Assembly (NCBI RefSeq): GCF_014054725.1
Contig: NZ_CP059563.1
Span: 893,749 to 957,748 of the forward strand
Reading direction: 5' to 3'
DNA from: Conchiformibius steedae
Lineage (GTDB): Bacteria; Pseudomonadota; Gammaproteobacteria; Burkholderiales; Neisseriaceae
DNA length: 64,000 nucleotides
How positions within the stretch are numbered: position 1 is the first letter of the stretch; each line of letters starts with the position of its first letter. The notes under the pieces were generated by a model. It saw only the letters and a program-made list of their open reading frames with translations. It was not told the DNA's origin and searched no databases. The position numbers and the translations under genes are program-made. Shown piece by piece: positions 4,732-23,581 of the stretch.

Positions 4732-6780
4732 TCAGGCTTTTAAAAATCCCGCACGGCTGCCCAACCAGCGTTGCAGGTGTTCGGCGGCGGTTTGGGGGTG
4801 GTGTGCCAATAATTCGGCGGCGGCAATGCGTGCGGCTTCCAATAATGGTAAATCGTTTTCCAAATCGGCAAAGCGCAACATCGGCAAACCGCTTTGACGT
4901 GCGCCCAGAAATTCCCCCGGTCCGCGAATCTGCAAGTCTTGACGGGCGATTTCAAAACCGTCTGTGTGTTGGTAAATCACTTTTAAACGTGCTTTTGAAG
5001 TTTCGCCCAAAGGCTCGGCAAACAACAATACGCAGGTGCTGTGCGCCGCGCCGCGACCCACGCGCCCGCGCAGTTGGTGCAGTTGTGCCAAACCCATGCG
5101 CTCGGCGTGTTCAATCACCATTAAAGCGGCATTGGGTACGTCCACGCCCACTTCAATCACGGTGGTGGCGACCAAAACCTGTATTTCGCCCGCAATAAAA
5201 CGCGCCATCACTTCGGCTTTTTCGGCGGCTTTCATGCGACCGTGCAGCAGTCCAATGGCGAGTTCGGGCAGGGCGGTTTGCAGTTGTGCCAAAGTATCGG
5301 TGGCGGTTTGCAGTTGCAGGGTTTCGCTTTCTTCAATCAGCGGACACACCCAATATGCCTGATAACCTTGCCGACAGGTATGCAGCACAAAGCCTTCCAC
5401 TTCGCGGCGGCGGTTGTGGCTGACCAATTTGGTGCGTATCGGCGTGCGCCCTGGCGGCAATTCGTCAATCACCGACACATCCAAATCGGCAAAAAAGCCC
5501 ATCGCCAGCGTGCGCGGAATCGGTGTGGCAGACATCATCAGCTGGTGTACGTCCTGACCTTTGTTTTTTAATGCCAAACGTTGTGCCACGCCAAAACGGT
5601 GCTGTTCGTCCACCACCGCCAAGCCCAAATTGTGAAACACAATATCGTCTTGAAACAGCGCGTGTGTGCCTACTGCCACGCGCGTTTGCCCCGACAGCAA
5701 AGCCGCTTTTGCAGTGTCTTTGGCTTTTTTGCGGGTGCGTCCCGACAACAGCACTGTTTCAATCCCCAAAGGCGCAAACCATTGGCAGAATTTTTGATAA
5801 TGCTGTTCGGCGAGGATTTCGGTGGGTGCCATTACTGCCACTTGAAAGCCTTGCGCGTCTTCCAATGCCGTTAATGCCGCCAACGCCGCCACCAAGGTTT
5901 TGCCGCTGCCCACATCGCCTTGTAGTAAACGGTGCATCGGTATGCTGCGCGACAAATCCGCCGCAATTTCCGCACACACGAGCTGTTGCGCCGCTGTGGG
6001 CGTAAACGGCAACGCCGCCAAAAACGGCGTAATCAAGCTGCCGTTGCCCCGAATCGGACGCGCCGAACCGCTTTCGCGCTGCTGGCGTGCTTGTTGCATG
6101 GAAAGCTGTTGCGCCAATAATTCGTCAAATTTCAGCCTTTGCAAGGCAGGATGATGACCGTTTAACAGCATTTGCGGCGACACATCGGGCGGCGGACGGT
6201 GCAGCAGTTGCAAACTGTCGTACAGCGGCGGCAGGCACAAACGGCGCAACAGGGCTTCGGGCAACAGTTCTTCGCGGCTGATGTGTGCCAATGCCGTTGC
6301 CACCGCACGGCGCAGCACCGTTTGCGGCAAACCCGATACCGTGGGATACACGGGTGTCAGCGTATCCGCCAAAGGTGTAGAGCTGGCAGCGCGGATTTTC
6401 GGGTGTATCATTTCCGCCCCGTAAAACCCGTGTCTGATTTCCCCCAAAGCGCGTACCGTTTTACCCACTGCCAACTGCTGTTGCTGGTTGGGATAAAAAT
6501 TTAAAAAACGCACAAACAGCCTGCTGCCTTCCGCATCGCAGATTTGCGCCACCAGCTGACGGCGCGGTTTGAACACCACTTCGCAATGCACCACCGTTCC
6601 TTCCACCTGACAAGGCGTGCCAAACGGTGCACGCGCAATTGATACAATGCGCGTTTCGTCTTCATAACGCAGCGGCAGGTGCAATGCCAAATCCCAAGCC
6701 TGATAAAGATGCAGTTTTTCCAATTTTTGGGCAAGGGTCGCGCTGATGTCGGGCAGGGAACGGACGGGAAGCATCATCAT
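4732..6780 (-). CDS. recG: ATP-dependent DNA helicase RecG
   Basis: GDVGSGKT Walker A and DEQHRFG helicase motifs; start set at the MMM cluster preceded by AGGAAAG. Confidence 0.9.
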   Translation of the reverse strand: MMMLPVRSLPDISATLAQKLEKLHLYQAWDLALHLPLRYEDETRIVSIARAPFGTPCQVEGTVVHCEVVFKPRRQLVAQICDAEGSRLFVRFLNFYPNQQQQLAVGKTVRALGEIRHGFYGAEMIHPKIRAASSTPLADTLTPVYPTVSGLPQTVLRRAVATALAHISREELLPEALLRRLCLPPLYDSLQLLHRPPPDVSPQMLLNGHHPALQRLKFDELLAQQLSMQQARQQRESGSARPIRGNGSLITPFLAALPFTPTAAQQLVCAEIAADLSRSIPMHRLLQGDVGSGKTLVAALAALTALEDAQGFQVAVMAPTEILAEQHYQKFCQWFAPLGIETVLLSGRTRKKAKDTAKAALLSGQTRVAVGTHALFQDDIVFHNLGLAVVDEQHRFGVAQRLALKNKGQDVHQLMMSATPIPRTLAMGFFADLDVSVIDELPPGRTPIRTKLVSHNRRREVEGFVLHTCRQGYQAYWVCPLIEESETLQLQTATDTLAQLQTALPELAIGLLHGRMKAAEKAEVMARFIAGEIQVLVATTVIEVGVDVPNAALMVIEHAERMGLAQLHQLRGRVGRGAAHSTCVLLFAEPLGETSKARLKVIYQHTDGFEIARQDLQIRGPGEFLGARQSGLPMLRFADLENDLPLLEAARIAAAELLAHHPQTAAEHLQRWLGSRAGFLKA

Positions 6781-10494: not shown

Positions 10495-11493
<999 letters not shown>

Positions 11494-11516: not shown

Positions 11517-12119
11517 ATGAACCAGAATAGTAATTTAATGCCAAACGGTGTGCCTGTCCGCCAAATCCGTGCCGTATATGACAACGATACCATCCGCGTT
11601 TATCAGGCATATAGCGATGCCATTGCCGATACGGCTTTGGCGAACGGACGTTTTGTATCGCCACTGTTTAAAATGACGCGGATGACTTGGATTAAGCCCT
11701 CGTTTTTATGGATGATGTACCGTGCGGGCTGGGGTTTGAAAGATGCAGGGCAAAAACGTATTTTGGCAATCGATATCCGCCGAGATGGTTTTGAATGGGC
11801 GTTGGCACACGCGATTGGCAGCCGCAAACCCGATAATATGGATGCAGCGCAATGGCAATACGCCAAAGAAACGCATCCTGTGCGGATACAATGGGACCCC
11901 GAACGCGATATTCATTTGCAGCCTTTGCCTTACCGTGCCATTCAAATCGGTTTGACTGGTGAGGCAGTTCAGCATTATGTGAATGATTGGATTGTAAGCA
12001 TAAATGAAGTAACCGATACGGCGCACCGCATCCGTGATTTGGTCGTGCAGGGCGAAACGGCTGCTGCTGCGGCTTTGCTGCCTGTAGAGTGTGAATATCC
12101 TTATATTAACTTGAGATAA
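11517..12119 (+). CDS. DUF4291-like protein (MTWIKPSFLWMMYRAGWG motif), function unknown
   Basis: 200-aa ORF with a strongly conserved-looking motif; first gene of the insertion between pheS and pheT. Confidence 0.6.
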   Translation: MNQNSNLMPNGVPVRQIRAVYDNDTIRVYQAYSDAIADTALANGRFVSPLFKMTRMTWIKPSFLWMMYRAGWGLKDAGQKRILAIDIRRDGFEWALAHAIGSRKPDNMDAAQWQYAKETHPVRIQWDPERDIHLQPLPYRAIQIGLTGEAVQHYVNDWIVSINEVTDTAHRIRDLVVQGETAAAAALLPVECEYPYINLR

Positions 12120-12123
12120 CAGT

Positions 12124-12444
12124 ATGTCAGAACTTTCTATTCAGCCCCTGATTAATGCCGTTAAGCGCTTGCATGAGGGCTGGTTGCGTTATCTGCAGGA
12201 TACCGATGATGCCCAAATTCGGGATGGTTTAATTCAGCGTTTTGAGTTTACCTATGAAATTAGCCATAAGATTTTAAAGCGTTATTTGGAATATACTTCC
12301 GCCAATCCAACCCAATTTGACGGCATGAGTTTTCAAGACCTTATCCGTACAGCCAACGAACAAAACCTACTATTAGGCGATTGGACGGATTGGAAACAAT
12401 ACCGCGATATGCGCGCCCGAACCAGCCACACTTATGACGAATAA
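12124..12444 (+). CDS. HEPN-domain protein, HI0074/HepT family (nucleotidyltransferase substrate-binding protein; candidate toxin)
   Basis: GLIQRFEFTYEISHKILKRYLEY core and a C-terminal RARTSHTYDE (Rx4HxY HEPN motif); the ORF ends 2 aa after the motif. Confidence 0.75.
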   Translation: MSELSIQPLINAVKRLHEGWLRYLQDTDDAQIRDGLIQRFEFTYEISHKILKRYLEYTSANPTQFDGMSFQDLIRTANEQNLLLGDWTDWKQYRDMRARTSHTYDE

Positions 12445-12524
12445 ACCGCGCTGGCGGTGGTGGCAGGTATAGAAAAGTTCTTAACTGAAGCCCAATTTTT
12501 ACAACAGCGTTTATCGGAAAAATA

Positions 12525-12767
12525 ATGGGATTGTCTATACCTTCCGAGCAGTTGCAAATCGTTCAAAGTATTTTGCAAAAACACGTTCCGCAACGTAGTG
12601 TGTTGGCATTTGGTTCGCGGGTTCAAGGCAATGCCAAGCCTTATTCTGATTTGGATTTTGCAATATTGGGCAATGAGCCGTTATCTATTGCCGAACACGC
12701 GGATTTAACAAGCGATGCAGTTGCAAATCGTTCAAAGTATTTTGCAAAAACACATCCCGCAACGTAG
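12525..12767 (+). pseudogene. N-terminal fragment of a minimal nucleotidyltransferase (MntA/HI0073-like), frameshifted by a tandem duplication
   Basis: GSRVQGNAKPYSDLD NTase motif; after ADLTSD the reading frame runs out of phase into repeat copy 2 and stops. Confidence 0.6.
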
Positions 12768-12885
12768 TGTGTGGGCATTTGGTTCGCGGGTTCAAGGCAA
12801 TGCCAAGCCTTATTCTGATTTGGATTTGGTAATATTGGGCAATGAGCCGTTATCTATTGCTGAACACGCGGATTTAACAAGCGAT
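12548..12885 (+). repeat. imperfect direct tandem duplication (2 x 169 bp) inside the MNT gene
   Basis: copy 1 at 12548-12716 and copy 2 at 12717-12885, about 5 mismatches; the unit length is not a multiple of 3. Confidence 0.9.
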
Positions 12886-13953
12886 TTTTCTGAAAGCGAT
12901 TTGCCGTGGAAAGTGGATATTGTGGATTGGTGCTTAATTAGTGATGAATTCCGTCAGATTATTCAACAACAATATTATGAGCTTCAAAAAATGAAAAAAT
13001 TAAGTTTTCCTGAATTGGCGATAAAAGTGATGCGTGAATTTAACCGTCCTGCTACGGTGGATGAATTGTGGCAGTATGTTCAAGAAAAACAACTTTATAT
13101 AGATTTGGAAGCCTATGATGCCAATCGTGGTGGGTTTAAAGGCAAAACACCAGACATTACTTTTTGCGCAAGAATCTATACTTTGGCAAAACAAGGGCGT
13201 TATTTTAAAGAGGTGGGTAATGCTTCGCCAAAACAGTTTGTTTTATTAGAGCATTCTTTGCCTAAGCACATTGATGTTGAACAGAGATTAAATGCTTCTG
13301 ATACCACTCAAGCCAAGAAGCAAATTAAAGAACGTGAGTTGCATAAATTTCTTAGCCATTATTTGTATCACAATAAAGCATTTGGCGCTTATTCGCGCAC
13401 TATTTTTCATGAAAGCAGCAAAAAAGGGCAAAAGGGCGAGGATAAATGGCTTTATCCTGATATGGTAGCGGTGCATTTTGAATATGAGGGTTATCAGCAT
13501 CATCATGTTTTAAGTTTTGTGAAGAAGTTTGATATTTTGCCAGTAAAGGTTTTTTCTTTTGAGTTAAAACGAGATTTGGGCTTCTCTAATTATAAACAAT
13601 CTTTTTTTCAGGCAGTCAGTAATTCCAGTTGGGCAAACGAGGGTTATTTAGTTGCGTTGAATATTGATTCGGACAGTCAGTTTCTTGAGGCATTGCAAAA
13701 ATTAAGTCAAAGCTTTGGTATTGGTATTATTCAGTTGGATATTGTGCAGATAGAAAACAGTAGGGTGATTTCGCCTGCACGTTATAAGGAAAAAATGGAT
13801 TATTCGGTGGTAAACGAGCTGGCAAGTAAAAATGAAGACTTTAAAGATTTTTTGAAAACGGTTACTGATTTTGACCCAAAAAGTAAAGAACGTTTTTTAA
13901 GTGAGTTTGACCCGATTTTAACGGCTGAAAAACTAAATGATACAATATATTGA
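12715..13953 (+). CDS. MNT (nucleotidyltransferase) domain fused to a HARE-HTH-like region and a C-terminal putative PD-(D/E)xK nuclease-like region
   Basis: starts at an ATG created at the duplication junction. Residues 1-95 form a polymerase-beta-type NTase (GSRVQG...SDLDL). Residues ~100-170 have the HARE-HTH pattern (PELAIKVMREF..PATVDELWQYV...GKTPDITF). The C-terminal region has a D...ELK arrangement. The gene is AT-rich. Confidence 0.55.
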   Translation: MQLQIVQSILQKHIPQRSVWAFGSRVQGNAKPYSDLDLVILGNEPLSIAEHADLTSDFSESDLPWKVDIVDWCLISDEFRQIIQQQYYELQKMKKLSFPELAIKVMREFNRPATVDELWQYVQEKQLYIDLEAYDANRGGFKGKTPDITFCARIYTLAKQGRYFKEVGNASPKQFVLLEHSLPKHIDVEQRLNASDTTQAKKQIKERELHKFLSHYLYHNKAFGAYSRTIFHESSKKGQKGEDKWLYPDMVAVHFEYEGYQHHHVLSFVKKFDILPVKVFSFELKRDLGFSNYKQSFFQAVSNSSWANEGYLVALNIDSDSQFLEALQKLSQSFGIGIIQLDIVQIENSRVISPARYKEKMDYSVVNELASKNEDFKDFLKTVTDFDPKSKERFLSEFDPILTAEKLNDTIY

Positions 13954-13971
13954 TAAGAAAGTGCAAAAGAT

Positions 13972-16332
13972 ATGCAATTCCCCTACTCATGGCTAAAAAC
14001 CCAAGCCAACCCCGATTTATCCGCCGAACAACTTGCCCACCTGCTAACCATGGCGGGTTTGGAAGTGGAAGACAGCGAAGCCGCCGCGCCCGATTTTTCG
14101 GGTGTGGTGGTGGCGGATGTAAAATCCGTTGAAAAACATCCCGATGCCGACCGTTTAAACATCACCCAAGTGGATGCTGGCACGGGCGAACTGTTGCAGA
14201 TTGTGTGCGGTGCGCCCAATGTGCGTGCGGGCATGAAAGTACCGTGTGCCTTGGCGGGGGCAGTGCTGCCGGGTAATTTCAAAATCAAACCGACCAAAAT
14301 GCGCGGACAGGTTTCCAACGGTATGTTGTGTTCCGCCAAAGAATTGGGGCTGCCTGAAAACGGCGTAGATGGTTTGCTGGAACTGCCCGCCGATGCGCCC
14401 GTTGGTACAAACTTGCGCGATTATCTGGATTTGGACGACACTGTTTTTACCTTAAAAATCACGCCCAACCGCACCGATTGTTTAAGCATCAAAGGTTTGG
14501 CACGCGAAACCGCCGCGCTGACCCAATGCGCGTTTACCCCGCCTGCCGTGCCTGCCGTTGCCGAACAGTCTGAACACCGCTTCCCCGTACGCATTGACGC
14601 GCCTGCCGATTGCGGACGTTTTCTCAGCCGCCCGATTCGCGGTGTGAACGCTCGCGCCGCATCGCCTGAATGGCTGGTGCGCCGTCTGGAACGCTGCGGC
14701 GTGCGCAGCATTTCCGCGTTGGTGGACATTGGCAATTATGTGATGCTGGAATTGGGTCAGCCGATGCACGTTTTTGATGCCGACAAACTTTCAGGCAGCC
14801 TGATTGTTCGCCGTGCCGAAAACGGTGAAACTTTAGCGTGTTTAAATGGAAAAACCGTTACCTTACAAGACAATACGCTAGTAGTTGCAGACGAAAAAGG
14901 CGCGTTAAGCATGGCGGGTTTGATGGGTGGCGAATCCAGCGCGGTCAGCGACGACACGCAAAACATTGTGTTGGAAAGCGCGTGGTTTGCGCCCGAAATT
15001 ATTGCAGGCAAATCACGCCAATACGGTTTTGGTTCGGATTCGTCTTTCCGCTTTGAACGCGGTGTGGATTTTGCCTTAACCCGCGAAGCGATGGAACGCG
15101 CCACCGCCTTGGTGCTGGAAATCTGCGGCGGCGAAGCGGGGCAGATTGTTGAAGCAACAGGCGATTTGCCCAAACGTGCGGCGGTAAACGTACGCACGGC
15201 GCGGGTGGCGAAGCTGTTGGGTGTAGATGTGCCTGCACCGCGCATTGAGCGTATTTTGGCGGATTTGGGTTTGCAGCCTCAGCCTACCGCAGACGGTTTT
15301 GCCGTGACTGTGCCGCCGTTCCGTTTTGATATTGCCATTGAAGCGGATTTGATTGAAGAAATCGCCCGCGTTTACGGTTACGAAAACATCCCCGACGATG
15401 CCCCGCGCGGACGTTTGGCGATGTTGCCGCTGCCTGAAAACCGCCGTCCGCGTTTTGACGTGTACCGCCACATGGCGAGCCGCGGTTTCCGCGAGATGGT
15501 CAGCTATGCCTTTACCGATGAAGCATGGGAACGCGATTTTGCCAATAACAACAATCCTATGCGTTTACAAAACCCCTTGGCGGCGCAATACAGCGTGATG
15601 CGTTCCAACCTGATTGGCAGCATGGTGGAAGTGTTGAAACACAATTTAAACCGCAAACACAGCCGCGTGCGCCTGTTTGAAATTGCCCGCGTATTTGCCA
15701 AAAATGCAGACGGCAGCGTGCGCCAACACGAGCGCATCGGTGCGTTGGCGCATGGCGCAGCCTTGCCCGAACAATGGGGCGAAAAAGCGCGCGCGGTGGA
15801 TTTTTACGATGTCAAAGCCGATGTGGAAAGCCTGTTGGCAGGGCAGAACGCGGTGTTTGTCGCCGCCGAACATCCCGCTTTGCACCCAGGGCGCAGCGCC
15901 AATATTGTGATTGACGGCAAAACCGTTGGTTTTATCGGCGAACTGCATCCCAAGTGGTTGCAGCAATACGATTTGCCCGCCGCGCCTTTGCTGTTTGAGC
16001 TGGATTTGGCGGTGGTGCAGCAGCGCGACAAAACCGTTTACCGTCCCGTTTCCAAATTCCAAGCGGTACGCCGCGATTTGGCATTTGTGTTGCCCGAAAG
16101 CACCGCTTATGCGGATTTGGAACAGGCGTTGCGCGGCGTGTCCAGCCCCTTAATCCGCGAAATTGCGCTGTTTGACGTGTATCGCGGCGCAGGTTTGCCC
16201 GACAATATGAAAAGCATGGCGGTGAAAATCCTGTTGCAGGACGACGATGCCACGCTCACCGATGAAGCGGTAGAAGCGGTGGTGGCGCAGTTGTTGGCGG
16301 CGGCGGAAAGCGTGGGCGCGAAATTGCGTTAA
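13972..16332 (+). CDS. pheT: phenylalanine--tRNA ligase beta subunit
   Basis: 786 aa with tRNA-binding, B3/4, B5 and FDX-ACB domain order; MQFPYSWLK N-terminus. Confidence 0.95.
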   Translation: MQFPYSWLKTQANPDLSAEQLAHLLTMAGLEVEDSEAAAPDFSGVVVADVKSVEKHPDADRLNITQVDAGTGELLQIVCGAPNVRAGMKVPCALAGAVLPGNFKIKPTKMRGQVSNGMLCSAKELGLPENGVDGLLELPADAPVGTNLRDYLDLDDTVFTLKITPNRTDCLSIKGLARETAALTQCAFTPPAVPAVAEQSEHRFPVRIDAPADCGRFLSRPIRGVNARAASPEWLVRRLERCGVRSISALVDIGNYVMLELGQPMHVFDADKLSGSLIVRRAENGETLACLNGKTVTLQDNTLVVADEKGALSMAGLMGGESSAVSDDTQNIVLESAWFAPEIIAGKSRQYGFGSDSSFRFERGVDFALTREAMERATALVLEICGGEAGQIVEATGDLPKRAAVNVRTARVAKLLGVDVPAPRIERILADLGLQPQPTADGFAVTVPPFRFDIAIEADLIEEIARVYGYENIPDDAPRGRLAMLPLPENRRPRFDVYRHMASRGFREMVSYAFTDEAWERDFANNNNPMRLQNPLAAQYSVMRSNLIGSMVEVLKHNLNRKHSRVRLFEIARVFAKNADGSVRQHERIGALAHGAALPEQWGEKARAVDFYDVKADVESLLAGQNAVFVAAEHPALHPGRSANIVIDGKTVGFIGELHPKWLQQYDLPAAPLLFELDLAVVQQRDKTVYRPVSKFQAVRRDLAFVLPESTAYADLEQALRGVSSPLIREIALFDVYRGAGLPDNMKSMAVKILLQDDDATLTDEAVEAVVAQLLAAAESVGAKLR

Positions 16333-16342
16333 TAATCAAACG

Positions 16343-16379
16343 GCACGGTAAAGCACCGTGCCGTTTTTCAGGCTGCCTG
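16343..16379 (+). terminator. pheT terminator hairpin followed by a DUS (AGGCTGCCTGAA)
   Basis: aacggcacggtaaagcaccgtgccgttttt hairpin; AGGCTGCCTGAA at 16368-16379. Confidence 0.7.
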
Positions 16380-16390
16380 AAAGGAAAATC

Positions 16391-17161
16391 ATGCTGACTT
16401 TAAGCAATATTTATCAATATCCCGTTAAATCTATGCGCGGCAATGCTTTAACGCACAGCCGTTTGGACGAAATGGGTGTGGCGGGCGACCGTGTGTGGTT
16501 GCTTGCCGAGCCGGACGGCACGTTTATCACCGCGCGCAGCTTTCCCGAACTGTTGCGCTGGCAGGCACAGATTGAAGCAGACGGCACGCTGCATCTGTTT
16601 GCCCCTGATGGCGACAGCCGCCGCATTGCCCCGTCTGCTTTGGCGGTTGGGCAAAATGTGCGTGTGTGGAAAGACCGTTTTTCCGCGCAGGGCGGCGACG
16701 ACGAAACCAATGCGTGGCTGTCGCACAAACTGGCGCGTCCCGTGCGTTTGCATTATATCGGCGGCGTTTCGCAGCGTTTATTGCAGGGGCAGACGCCCTT
16801 GTCGTTTGCCGACGGCGCACCGGTTTTGCTGACCCACACCGCATCGCTGGACACACTCAACCGCCAATTGGGTGAAAGCTTTAGCATGAACCGTTTTCGT
16901 GCCAATTTGGTGGTGGCGGGCGGCGAAGCCTTTGCCGAAGAAAGCTGGCAGCGCATCCGCATCGGCAGCGTGGTTTTGCGCCATTACAAACCCTGCACCC
17001 GCTGCGTGCTGACCACCATCTGCCCCGACACCCTTGCCAAACACCCCGCGCAACAGCCCTTATCGTGGCTGGCGAAAAACCGCCGCGCCCTGTTCGGCGT
17101 AAACCTGCTGGTGGAGCAGGGCGGTACCGTCAGCGTGGGCGACAGCGTAGAAGTTTGCTAA
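16391..17161 (+). CDS. MOSC-domain protein (YcbX-like)
   Basis: IYQYPVKSMRG N-terminus and a PCTRC motif near the C-terminus; AGGAAA RBS. Confidence 0.7.
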   Translation: MLTLSNIYQYPVKSMRGNALTHSRLDEMGVAGDRVWLLAEPDGTFITARSFPELLRWQAQIEADGTLHLFAPDGDSRRIAPSALAVGQNVRVWKDRFSAQGGDDETNAWLSHKLARPVRLHYIGGVSQRLLQGQTPLSFADGAPVLLTHTASLDTLNRQLGESFSMNRFRANLVVAGGEAFAEESWQRIRIGSVVLRHYKPCTRCVLTTICPDTLAKHPAQQPLSWLAKNRRALFGVNLLVEQGGTVSVGDSVEVC

Positions 17162-17325
17162 AAAATTATTGATTACAATAATTTGGGTGTAAAAAGCCGT
17201 GAAATCTGCCCCGTGTACCGTTCCCGCTAATGTAAAAAAATCATTTGTTTTCCACTATTCGCTTGATTTGTAACAAACAATTAGGGATAATCCACGCCTT
17301 AAACAAACACCCGAGGTACCATAAA

Positions 17326-17628
17326 ATGACACTCACCAAAGCAGAACTGGCTGATATTCTGGTCGAAAAAGTCAGCAGCGTCAGCAAAAACGATGCCAAG
17401 GAAATCGTGGAGCTGTTTTTTGAAGAAATCCGTGCCACTTTGGAGCGCGGTGAGGAAATCAAAATCTCAGGCTTTGGCAATTTCCAATTGCGCGACAAAC
17501 CGCAACGCCCCGGTCGCAATCCCAAAACAGGCGAAGAAGTGCCGATTACTGCCCGCCGCGTGGTTACCTTCCATGCCAGCCAAAAGCTGAAAGGCATGGT
17601 GGAGCATTACTATGACAAGCAGCGTTAA
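17326..17628 (+). CDS. ihfA: integration host factor alpha subunit
   Basis: [12 protein letters not shown]...[24 protein letters not shown] is the canonical IHF-alpha sequence. Confidence 0.9.
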
Positions 17629-17959: not shown

Positions 17960-18036
17960 CGGAGTGTGGCGCAGTCTGGTAGCGCACTTGCATGGGGTGC
18001 AAGGGGTCGAAGGTTCGAATCCTTTCACTCCGACCA
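17960..18036 (+). tRNA. tRNA-Pro (anticodon GGG)
   Basis: canonical cloverleaf CGGAGTG...TAGCGCA, anticodon loop CATGGGGTG, GGTTCGAATCC T-loop, encoded CCA. Confidence 0.9.
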
Positions 18037-21685: not shown

Positions 21686-23581
21686 TTAATTGGGGAAAGT
21701 GTGTTTAAACCAATCCTGAAAAGCTGGGCTTTGGCGGATGCCGTCAAAATCTTTGTCCTGCTCAATATGGCTTTTGGACGGGAAATTATCGGCTGAAGCC
21801 GCCAATTTTAATTGTTCCACTACCTTATCGGCGCTGCTGTCTAAAAGCGCGTACACGCAGGCTAGGTTATATGCCAATTCAGCCGCGTGCTGCGGATAAT
21901 TTTGAATAAAATCTTCGGTAAGCTTTTTCGCTGCTACTAATTTTGCTTGCGCGGCTTGGTTTTGTTGATTTTGTTTTCTGGCGTCATATTCATTTCCTAA
22001 AGAAATCATCTTGTTACGAACAGGGTTGTAATAATCGGGCTCAATGTCTAGAGCCTTGTCGTATTGTTTATAGGCTTGATTCCATTTATCCCATGCTTCG
22101 TCCAAGTGGTTATTGTGTGCCAAAGCTTGTGCTTCATCGTCTAAAGCTGAACCCCAATTATTAGCAGCTTGATAAAAATCAGGCTTAATGCGTAAAGCCT
22201 TGTTGTACAGTTTATAGGCTTCACTCCATTTATCCCGTGCTTCACCAAAGCGATTATTTTTTGTCAAAGCCTGTGCTTCATTACATAAAGAAATAGCCCA
22301 GCTAGAGGCAATTTCATAATCACTGGGCTTGATACTTAAAGCCTTGCCGTATAGTGTATAGGCTTGGTTCCATTTCTCCCATGCTTCGTCAAAGCGGTTA
22401 TTTTGTGCTAAAGCCAGTGCCTCATTACCTAAAGTAACAGCCCAGTTAAAAGTAATTAGATAATCATCAGCTTTGGTGCTTGAAGCTTTGCTGTATAGTT
22501 TATAGGCGTGATCCCATTTCTCCCATGCTTTATCAAAGTTATTATTTTGTACCCAAGCTAGTGCTTCATTATCTAAAGCAGTACCCCAGTTGAGAGCGGC
22601 TGGATAAAAATCGGGATTGATATGTAAAGCCTTGTCGTACAGTTGATATGCTTGATTCCACTTATCCTGTGCTTCACCCAAACGGTTGTTTTGTGCTAAA
22701 GCCTCTGCTTGATGGTTTAAAGCATTGCCCCAGTTATAAGCAGCCTGATAGTTATCAGGGGCAAGCACTAAAACCTGTTGATAGCCTTGCTCAATATAGG
22801 GAAACCATACAGATTTTTGTAAGCGGCTACCTTGTTTATAAGCTTCATGTGCTTGATAAGCTGCATTAAATAGGGCATCAACATCATTCTGGCTGTGCTG
22901 TATTACCGCCTGCCATGCATAAAATGCCTGTTCGTGTTCCGTATAGCTTTTGGCTTGGTCGGATAATATAATGGCATGGGCGCGCAGCCGTTCGGCTAAA
23001 GGGATTTGTTCGTTATCTTGCAAATCGTTTGCGGCTTGTACGGCAGCTTGTTGTGCGGCTGCATTATCAGAGTTGGACTGGTAATCGCGCATTTGTTCGA
23101 TTTGTGCCATGTAGTCGGCGGCGGTTCGGTGTTGGCTTTTGATTTCCGATAAATATTTTTCAGCGTCTCCAGTATACTTCTTGGCTTCGTTCAAATATTT
23201 TTCGGTCTGGTCAATATATCCTTTGGCTTTGTTCAAATATGTTTCAGCTTGTTCGGTATGCCCTTTAGCTTCATTAATGGCTTGCTTTAAATTTTCCAGC
23301 ATATTGCTGCGCTCGCGCCAATAAAATGCCAAGGGCAAAATCAGGCTAAGTAAGCCGATTAGGGTCAGCCACCATGCGATGGTTTCTTGTTGGCTGTCTA
23401 AGGTTTCTTTGCGTAAATCCAGCATTTTCTCCTGAAATTGCAGCTCCAGCGTTTTTAAATCCTGTGTTGAAACAGTTGGCGTGGCAGCTTGTGATGCAGC
23501 TGTTACCGAAACAGTGGTTTCGGCAACAGCCATATTCAGCAGCAAGCACAGGACAAGCGGGAAAAGATAGGTGGGTTTCAT
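21686..23581 (-). CDS. TPR-like repeat protein with signal peptide, coiled-coil, one TM helix and five or more 46-aa repeats
   Basis: MKPTYLFPLVLCLLLNMAVA signal peptide; TM IAWWLTLIGLLSLILPLAFYW; repeats of the form NNRFDEAWEKWNQAYKLYDKAL.I.PD.Y.AA.NWG.AL..EA.AL; AT-rich. Confidence 0.7.
   Translation of the reverse strand: MKPTYLFPLVLCLLLNMAVAETTVSVTAASQAATPTVSTQDLKTLELQFQEKMLDLRKETLDSQQETIAWWLTLIGLLSLILPLAFYWRERSNMLENLKQAINEAKGHTEQAETYLNKAKGYIDQTEKYLNEAKKYTGDAEKYLSEIKSQHRTAADYMAQIEQMRDYQSNSDNAAAQQAAVQAANDLQDNEQIPLAERLRAHAIILSDQAKSYTEHEQAFYAWQAVIQHSQNDVDALFNAAYQAHEAYKQGSRLQKSVWFPYIEQGYQQVLVLAPDNYQAAYNWGNALNHQAEALAQNNRLGEAQDKWNQAYQLYDKALHINPDFYPAALNWGTALDNEALAWVQNNNFDKAWEKWDHAYKLYSKASSTKADDYLITFNWAVTLGNEALALAQNNRFDEAWEKWNQAYTLYGKALSIKPSDYEIASSWAISLCNEAQALTKNNRFGEARDKWSEAYKLYNKALRIKPDFYQAANNWGSALDDEAQALAHNNHLDEAWDKWNQAYKQYDKALDIEPDYYNPVRNKMISLGNEYDARKQNQQNQAAQAKLVAAKKLTEDFIQNYPQHAAELAYNLACVYALLDSSADKVVEQLKLAASADNFPSKSHIEQDKDFDGIRQSPAFQDWFKHTFPN

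Follow-up and report, generated by a model that had tools for sequence, protein, structure and literature searches.

What has come to lie between pheS and pheT in Conchiformibius steedae, and is the long reading frame at the end of the inserted DNA a defence protein of a new kind? In a 64-kb stretch from C. steedae DSM 2580, called the window here and used for all coordinates, 2.4 kb of DNA parts the two genes, all on the + strand. A sequence-only reading of this stretch had described an insert of three genes, encoding a DUF4291 protein, a HepT-like HEPN protein and an MntA-like minimal nucleotidyltransferase (MNT) that continues into a region with a HARE-HTH-like segment and a nuclease-like C-terminus, and had proposed a defence module based on a toxin-antitoxin (TA) pair. 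Our analysis points to another explanation, which we consider probable: the insert would be a composite of separately acquired cassettes, namely a DUF4291 gene, a decaying HepT/MntA pair and a gene of the HrgA family, placed in the slot of a minimal mobile element (MME), and the fusion would be a species-specific read-through. An MME is a conserved gene pair between which different cassettes are swapped by homologous recombination (PMC3082526, PMC7973814).

The fused reading frame and its HrgA-family part

The open reading frame (ORF) at 12715-13953 encodes 412 amino acids (aa), and the MNT does run in frame into the downstream region of about 310 aa, as had been read from the sequence. The region is a complete HrgA-family gene, and the combination of a HARE-HTH/winged helix with a PD-(D/E)xK nuclease was described for HrgA/DUF511 in 2011 (PMC3045609). 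HrgA/DUF511 proteins have 310-320 aa, join a winged helix like that of RNA polymerase delta to a predicted PD-(D/E)xK nuclease and have no conserved methylase, and in Helicobacter pylori hrgA and the restriction gene hpyIIIR replace each other through homologous recombination (PMC3045609, PMC2588503).

The HrgA-like gene has its own ATG at 12991, which is the start point of the stand-alone homologues. Residues 93-412 of the fused ORF match more than 7500 proteins, the 120 best of them at 46-66% identity; all of these 120 but the fusion P0001 are shorter than 365 aa and start where the window segment starts. In a BLASTP comparison, residues 3-319 of the 320-aa HrgA-like protein match a protein of a Helicobacter plasmid that is named HrgA by PGAP, with an E-value of 5e-56 and 33% identity, and the segments WLYPDMV, FSFELK and SNSSWANEGYLVA are common to both proteins. 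A tblastn search against plasmids gave full-length matches labelled "HTH domain-containing protein" and "HrgA protein".

The HrgA-like protein has the E...PD...(D/E)xK motifs and the PD-(D/E)xK fold, in agreement with the nuclease-like C-terminal region of the earlier reading. The predicted nuclease residues are D157 (13459-13461) and E191-x-K193 (13561-13569), and E114, P156-D157, E191-x-K193 and FFQAVSNSSWANEGYL are invariant or nearly so across 34 sequences. The HARE-HTH segment, at residues 97-129 of the 412-aa ORF, scores 21-22 bits in the window protein, which is below the threshold of 25.9, and longer relatives with two HARE-HTH domains score up to 86.9 bits, so the assignment, rightly made at the outset, holds at the family level. 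From its fold and invariant residues, the HrgA-like protein would act alone as a DNA nuclease, directed by its winged helix; that it might be modification-dependent, in the manner of type IV enzymes, can be offered as a hypothesis only. In the relatives P0273, P0278, P0340 and P0371 a tandem pair of HARE-HTH domains stands ahead of the nuclease domain, and P0274 and P0306 have C-terminal extensions of more than 110 aa without a Pfam match.

A 419-aa form of the fused protein was compared in an HMMER pass with 1.84 billion representative proteins, and the best 150 were inspected. None of these 150 aligns with query residues 1-92, which are the MNT part, and in the seven proteins among them that exceed 400 aa Pfam shows HARE-HTH domains only (in tandem in four), with N- or C-terminal extensions. 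The best-supported conclusion is that the MNT-HARE-nuclease ORF is a read-through fusion into an HrgA-family gene, which is confined to C. steedae and is not a conserved defence architecture.

The junction itself can be followed in other alleles, which form the haplotypes A to D listed in Table 1. The TAA that ends mntA in haplotype A (locus L014) aligns with the AAA codon preceding the HrgA ATG in haplotypes B, C and D. At locus L002, about 30 nt between the MNT and HrgA genes hold a TGA, a DNA uptake sequence and a GGGGGAG ribosome-binding site, all absent from C. steedae. The mntA stop codon and the spacer would have been lost in the C. steedae population (TAA elsewhere, AAA here), so that the mntA frame runs directly on into the HrgA start. 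Another origin considered for the fusion, slippage by one base in the A-tract (A5 to A6), was ruled out, since the 98-aa MNT ends in ...YYKLQ*, its TAA aligns with AAA, and L002 is about 30 nt longer.

Distribution and neighbours of HrgA-like genes

A scan of representative genomes gave at least 551 HrgA-like loci, whose hosts include Moraxella, Neisseria, Kingella, Eikenella, Cardiobacteriaceae, Campylobacter, Helicobacter pylori, Wolinella, Bacteroidales, Bacillota and archaea. The genes encode 245-377 aa at the 77 loci with a callable ORF. Their 97 immediate neighbours at 53 non-redundant loci match 129 different Pfam families, none of them more than twice, and include one D12 methyltransferase. 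The HrgA family is a widespread solitary gene without a conserved partner. A tblastn search with the HepT and MNT of the window found nothing in the 80 HrgA loci fetched, and tblastn gave no phage record with an HrgA-like gene. The GC content of the HrgA-like gene is below that of its flanks in 15 of the 16 hosts checked.

The order pheS-HrgA-pheT, with HrgA as a separate gene, is found in Neisseria polysaccharea, a Neisseria sp., Kingella and Alysiella. The sequence-only reading had named, as a result that would speak against it, conservation of its genes between pheS and pheT across the family with native GC content and no HEPN or MNT matches. An HrgA-like gene is indeed kept in this slot in several Neisseriaceae genera, but its GC is low there too, and the HEPN and MNT matches are real.

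HrgA-like genes are also seen wedged into housekeeping pairs on the same strand, often with a 4-nt overlap. Such loci have the form pheS-X-pheT (L003, L006, L021, L026) or, in Moraxella, ispG-X-hisS (L009, L018-L025, L031, L099), and in H. pylori (L044 and related loci) the gene stands beside an ABC-F gene. At 4699-5687 of L099 the HrgA-like gene between ispG and hisS is split into ORFs of 87 and 228 aa and is pseudogenised; its C-terminal part shares 66% identity with the window gene. In Alysiella filiformis (L006, 5678-5968) a 96-aa ORF lies between pheS and the HrgA-like gene, which has no Pfam match and is not detectably related to the MNT or HepT of the window.

Locus L002, which probably belongs to a related member of the Neisseriaceae using the same uptake-sequence dialect, has HepT (134 aa, 79% identity), MNT (89 aa, 69%) and HrgA (328 aa, 59%) as separate genes in the same order, upstream of pheT (74%). 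There the uptake sequence AGGCTGCCTGAA (AG-simDUS) occurs at 5236-5256, upstream of hepT, and at 5963-5980, over the mntA stop, bracketing the TA pair. The window uses the AG-simDUS dialect, with 3 full copies and 13 ten-base cores, and none of these uptake sequences lies inside its pheS-pheT insert.

Haplotypes and recent exchange of the HrgA block

Haplotype A has 13 nt in place of the 961-bp HrgA block that the other three haplotypes carry. The HrgA codons of haplotype D (L100) and haplotype B (L001) differ at 2 of 960 nt (about 99.8% identity) with a synonymous divergence (pS) of 0, while pS is 0.07 in the MNT part of the same pair and 0.19 in pheT between L100 and the window. Compared with the window, L100 has no differences at 13139-14000 and then 7-15 differences per 200 nt from 14001 to about 15400. 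The pheT genes of haplotypes that share a near-identical HrgA block are about 5% divergent, with a sharp boundary at 14001, and a near-identical block beside a divergent pheT indicates that the HrgA block and the fused junction moved recently between diverged lineages. Such an exchange fits the behaviour expected of an MME, with homologous recombination in the flanks suggested by its signature in the alignments.

Since the HrgA block was shared recently, there has been too little time to read selection on the fusion from substitutions. The idea that the fusion is under selection, as it is kept across 3% divergence, was accordingly ruled out by the 2 differences and the pS of 0 in the block. 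The idea that the fusion is pure decay, always paired with the nonsense codon in hepT, was ruled out too, by L100, in which codon 107 is read through and the fusion is present.

The near-identical block with sharp edges could also be the mark of a selfish element, in which case the HrgA-like gene would use its nuclease to insert or persist between linked housekeeping genes such as pheS/pheT and ispG/hisS, and the fusion and the TA damage would be collateral. The position of these genes, always on the same strand inside conserved gene pairs and often overlapping the upstream gene by 4 nt, speaks for this, as do the lowered GC in 15 of 16 hosts and the patchy spread across bacteria and archaea. 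However, the neighbours vary between phyla, no common target sequence was found and the block ends have no terminal repeats; transformation and flank homology already explain such exchange in Neisseria and Helicobacter (PMC3082526, PMC3045609), and the gene is stable across Moraxella species in a way that resembles vertical inheritance. We regard a selfish element as distinctly unlikely.

The toxin-antitoxin genes

The HepT of the window scores above both HI0074-family cut-offs (31.8 bits for PF08780 and 55.8 bits for TIGR01987) and contains the RX4HXY motif as R97-ARTS-H102-T-Y104, encoded at 12412-12435, so that its early assignment to HepT/HI0074-type HEPN proteins with this motif can be kept. 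It aligns to profile positions 3-99 of 126 only and does not form a complete HEPN domain of about 130 aa. Its ORF is ended by a TAA in place of Glu107, two codons past Y104, and the 27 orphaned codons that follow still read TALAVVAGIEKFLTEAQFLQQRLSEK* up to the natural stop TAA (12523-12525), which overlaps the mntA ATG (TAATG, 12523-12527). Codon 107 reads GAA (Glu) in both L014 and L100, and in L002 it is CAA. The solved structure of HI0074 (PDB 1JOG) aligns through the tail that the window HepT has lost. In Shewanella, HepT is an RNase with the RX4HXY motif, and MntA, which has the GSX10DXD motif, adds three AMPs to Tyr104 of HepT (PMC7641770). The truncated HepT(1-106) of the window is predicted to be inactive, since most of the helix after the catalytic motif is lost.

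The MNT at the N-terminus of the 412-aa ORF was correctly recognised as MntA-like: it scores 41.6 bits against PF01909 (NTP_transf_2; cut-off 21) and 42.9 bits against PF18765 (Polbeta; cut-off 26.9), and it carries GSRVQGNAKPYSDLD, which fits GSX10DXD and is present in both copies of the duplication listed in Table 1. Against the NCBIfam MntA equivalog NF047752 the score is 39.4 bits, below the cut-off of 60. In the window mntA does not encode a small (<150 aa) stand-alone protein, as it does in L014 (98 aa) and L002 (89 aa), and is present as an 80-aa fragment and the 412-aa fused ORF. The insert thus holds four gene units, two of them damaged, hepT by a nonsense codon and mntA by a duplication, and not three intact genes. 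At 10-100 of the PADLOC model PDLC03138, 'type I specificity subunit', there is a match to the window MNT (12715-12990; E-value 5e-21), and these model positions point to MNT-HsdS fusions or to a contaminated seed alignment in that model.

The duplication was seen both in a repeat search, with a spacing of 169, and in the alignment with the single-copy allele L001. Because 169 is not a multiple of three, the native mntA ORF, which begins at ATG 12525, shifts frame and ends at 12767. The ATG at 12715 straddles the two copies, taking its A and T from the end of copy 1 and its G from the start of copy 2; alleles without the duplication begin 7 codons earlier and encode 419 aa (P0001, P0136, P0137).

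Sequencing or assembly errors could in principle have produced the duplication, the nonsense codon or the fusion: single-copy alleles exist, and the composition of L001 is that of a collapsed assembly of the duplication. Three contigs of separate SRA runs (L010-L012), though, match the window at 100% identity, and each of them begins within copy 2; short-read contigs break in this way at a true repeat, so the duplication is taken as real. The nonsense codon is also found in L001 and L101, the fusion junction also in L001, L100 and L101, and the NCBI annotation of the genome has the same 412-aa and 106-aa products. The PheT and DUF4291 proteins of the window, like its HEPN and 412-aa products, agree exactly with NCBI proteins of the DSM 2580 genome. 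Separate exact look-ups with the window pheS and with the 412-aa product gave no record. Errors of this kind are very improbable. The single copy of L001 (852-1052) equals copy 1 in its 5' part and copy 2 in its 3' part, as expected of a product of recombination between the two copies, and the duplication may for this reason be reversible or have been born between two alleles. L001 is possibly a collapsed assembly of the duplication, and it is treated here as a true single-copy allele, since it differs from the window elsewhere.

Composition of the insert and the pheS-pheT slot

The AT-rich, foreign-looking character that had been noticed for the same-strand run of genes between pheS and pheT is clear in its composition. 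The GC content of 11517-13953 is 0.412, lower than in any other 2437-nt window across the 64 kb (mean 0.516, standard deviation 0.029), and it drops stepwise across the insert, from 0.484 in the DUF4291 gene to 0.435 in hepT, 0.416 in the MNT and 0.355 in the last gene, for which the z-score at its size is -4.3. The second-lowest GC of the window (about 0.40) is found on the other strand at 21686-23581, in a gene for a 631-aa TPR-repeat protein between Oxidored_FMN and aldose 1-epimerase genes.

The DUF4291 gene was also well recognised, and its product matches PF14124 along the entire profile (Table 1). DUF4291 is, by bioinformatic prediction, a family of atypical ADP-ribosyltransferases with QAY, WIK and [AS]IQ motifs (PMC12522546), which are readable in the translation as VYQAY, TWIKP and RAIQI. 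Relatives outside C. steedae are found at 62-72% identity in Burkholderiales, Pseudomonas, Acinetobacter, metagenomes and others, with one metagenome protein at 75%. No named Neisseriaceae protein besides those of C. steedae is among the best 120 DUF4291 matches, which suggests that this gene was acquired apart from the other cassettes.

In Neisseria meningitidis the pheS/pheT locus is strain-variable and carries type II restriction-modification (R-M) systems (PMC3082526, PMC7973814). The slot in C. steedae has the traits of an MME: conserved flanks with differing whole-gene cassettes, in the form of the four haplotypes and of HrgA alone in other genera, and neither mobility genes nor bounding repeats. 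Pfam showed no integrase or transposase, repeats in the slot are short and at chance level, with none bounding it, and no Rfam family and no tRNA were found between pheS and pheT. Promoter-like and terminator-like sites occurred in the scans only at chance level. PADLOC reported no system; the DUF4291 protein, HepT and HrgA had no match, and the MNT matched only generic PDC-S09 models and the MNT-like end of the type I S-subunit model.

The neighbourhood of pheS, pheT, ihfA and tRNA-Pro is reported as core defence hotspot 1 in Pseudomonas aeruginosa (bioRxiv 10.1101/2022.11.11.516204). In the window an ihfA-like gene (17245-17628) and a tRNA-Pro(GGG) gene (17960-18036) lie downstream of pheT and a MOSC gene. 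Overlapping inverted uptake-sequence-like elements of the TTCAGGCAGCCTGAA type are present at 16367-16381, just past pheT, at the start of the MOSC-domain ORF (16358-17161).

Table 1. Features of the pheS-pheT region of the window and haplotypes of C. steedae
Feature	Position or loci	Strand	Description
pheS	10498-11493	+	upstream conserved flank of the cassette slot; Pfam tRNA-synt_2d, E 1.1e-104; GC 0.527
DUF4291 gene, 200 aa	11517-12119	+	PF14124, E 2.5e-71, profile positions 1-180 of 180
hepT, shortened to 106 aa by a nonsense codon	12124-12444	+	PF08780, 96.4 bits; TIGR01987, 72.6 bits
Premature TAA (12442-12444) and orphaned 27-codon hepT tail	12442-12525	+	in-frame tail identical to the tail of intact alleles
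mntA 5' fragment, 80-aa ORF	12525-12767	+	native start, 64 native and 16 out-of-frame codons; NTP_transf_2 and Polbeta over aa 13-64
Tandem direct duplication inside mntA, 169 bp	12548-12885	+	copy 1 12548-12716, copy 2 12717-12885; 96% identity, 6 differences
MNT domain of the 412-aa ORF	12715-12990	+	start codon made at the duplication junction; GSX10DXD encoded at 12781-12825
Fusion junction, ctt caa AAA ATG aaa aaa	12982-12999	+	AAA at the mntA stop position, HrgA-like start directly after
HrgA-family gene, 320 aa (MKKLSF...)	12991-13953	+	HARE-HTH/winged helix about 12991-13260; PD-(D/E)xK fold about 13330-13770
pheT	13972-16332	+	downstream conserved flank; Pfam B3_4, tRNA_synthFbeta and others; recombination boundary at the 5' end
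Haplotype A	L014-L017		DUF4291; hepT intact, 133 aa; mntA stand-alone, 98 aa (...YYKLQ-TAA); pheT; HrgA absent; pheS 3' end in L014 only
Haplotype B	L001, L101		hepT E107*; mntA-HrgA fused in frame, 419 aa
Haplotype C	window; L010-L012 (100% identical)		hepT E107*; duplication: 80-aa fragment and 412-aa fused ORF
Haplotype D	L100		hepT open through codon 107 as far as its natural stop; mntA-HrgA fused in frame, 419 aa

A coupled defence module or a tolerated fusion

The claim that the locus is a TA-based defence module, with a functional link between the antitoxin and a DNA sensor or effector, is unsupported: HrgA is solitary, the genes are separate in L002, the fusion is seen only in C. steedae, and HepT and MNT are damaged in this strain. 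In its strongest form, this claim would make HepT, MntA and the HARE-nuclease a single module, in which the fusion couples AMPylation of HepT to DNA sensing or cleavage and HepT is set free once the DNA arm is engaged or overcome. Such a module, for which the 'type I specificity subunit' model of PADLOC with its MNT-like N-terminus could be cited, is unlikely. The search of representative proteins, in which the best 150 include no counterpart of the fusion, argues against it, as do the lack of a conserved neighbour and of HepT or MNT relatives at the 80 HrgA loci, the occurrence of HrgA alone in the slot of other Neisseriaceae and of the TA pair without HrgA in haplotype A. Moreover, both TA genes are disrupted in the window strain, the HrgA block has no synonymous divergence and hence no sign of selection on the fusion, and no PADLOC system was matched.

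Some points nevertheless weigh against the composite of separate cassettes, and part of them favour a single module. The fused ORF is open in four alleles and retains all invariant nuclease residues, and one of these alleles, haplotype D, has it beside a HepT without the stop at codon 107, whose frame is open from residue 28 or earlier. Should this toxin be active, the fusion would not simply be debris: the fused protein must then still neutralise HepT, and the fusion would be at least tolerated as an antitoxin. The HepT-MNT-HrgA adjacency and order are shared by two taxa, C. steedae and L002, and restriction nucleases, DNases of the REase fold, are frequent linkage or fusion partners of HEPN genes, which is a recognised functional theme (PMC3710099). 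The link to the H. pylori hrgA prototype, as judged by sequence, goes through proteins named HrgA by PGAP and not through the prototype itself. The direction of the changes may be either one, with HrgA lost in haplotype A or gained in B to D, and with the stop codon lost or gained.

It is conceivable from these points, but quite unlikely, that MntA::HrgA works as a bifunctional protein, in which an AMPylating antitoxin is joined to a HARE-HTH/PD-(D/E)xK DNA nuclease. In haplotypes of the L100 type, with an intact HepT, it would couple DNA sensing or cleavage to the release or restraint of HepT, and the window strain would be a later inactivated derivative.

Under the preferred composite reading, the TA pair would originally have been an RNase toxin neutralised by AMPylation, by analogy with Shewanella, and it would have been inactivated in the window strain first by the nonsense codon in the toxin and then by the duplication in the antitoxin. 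The fusion would be a tolerated accident and not an adaptive coupling, and the cassettes would be swapped by transformation and homologous recombination between the conserved flanks.

Significance

An apparent new defence architecture becomes in this way an explained case, located in a known recombination hotspot of a naturally competent family, and the four haplotypes record stop-codon loss, toxin inactivation and antitoxin disruption. HrgA-like genes, which are known mainly as a replacement of a restriction enzyme in H. pylori, form a large and strongly conserved solitary family across bacteria and archaea. In the Neisseriaceae HrgA occupies the slot of the NmeBI and NmeDI R-M systems of N. 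meningitidis, which parallels the replacement of hpyIIIR by hrgA and could guide work on its function. With haplotype D, a natural test is at hand for the tolerance of an MNT antitoxin to a C-terminal fusion of 320 aa.

Comparison with known systems

The DUF4291 protein shares with its family of predicted atypical ADP-ribosyltransferases the full-length Pfam match and the three motifs, and here it has no Macro, NUDIX or TetR neighbour. The TA pair shares with the type VII HepT/MntA systems (HI0073/HI0074) the RX4HXY motif, with Tyr104 at the same position as in the Shewanella HepT (PMC7641770), the GSX10DXD motif of the MNT and the adjacent, overlapping genes. Unlike those systems, it has a toxin shortened by 27 C-terminal residues and an antitoxin gene that a frameshifting duplication splits and that no longer ends in its own stop codon, and its HEPN gene is upstream of the MNT gene.

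Compared with the pheS-pheT MME of Neisseria, which carries NmeBI and NmeDI, the locus has the same flanking genes, a low-GC cargo that varies between strains and genera, a sharp divergence boundary in the flank and no integrase, transposase or bounding repeats. The cargo here is a TA pair with a DUF4291 gene and HrgA and not a type II R-M system, and the host is Conchiformibius, which uses the AG-simDUS dialect and has no uptake sequence in the insert.

The HrgA-like protein shares with H. pylori HrgA a length of about 320 aa, a predicted N-terminal winged helix of the RNA polymerase delta/HARE-HTH type and, after it, a PD-(D/E)xK domain in which all three motifs are present. In both cases there is no conserved methylase neighbour, other strains have R-M genes in the slot, whose content would in C. 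steedae, too, be swapped by homologous recombination, and the host is naturally competent. In C. steedae, however, the start is joined in frame to mntA, which lies upstream, the gene occupies the pheS-pheT slot and not the hpyIII locus, and the current Pfam copy has no model that matches the window protein. The family is conserved at 35-60% identity across phyla, far above what is usual for restriction enzymes. With type IV winged-helix-nuclease enzymes, such as the DpnI-like winged-helix fusions and Mrr, the protein has its design in common: a solitary gene combines a winged-helix DNA reader with a PD-(D/E)xK nuclease and has no cognate methyltransferase (PMC11037411); its predicted winged helix is N-terminal and of the HARE-HTH subtype, and the likeness is one of architecture alone.

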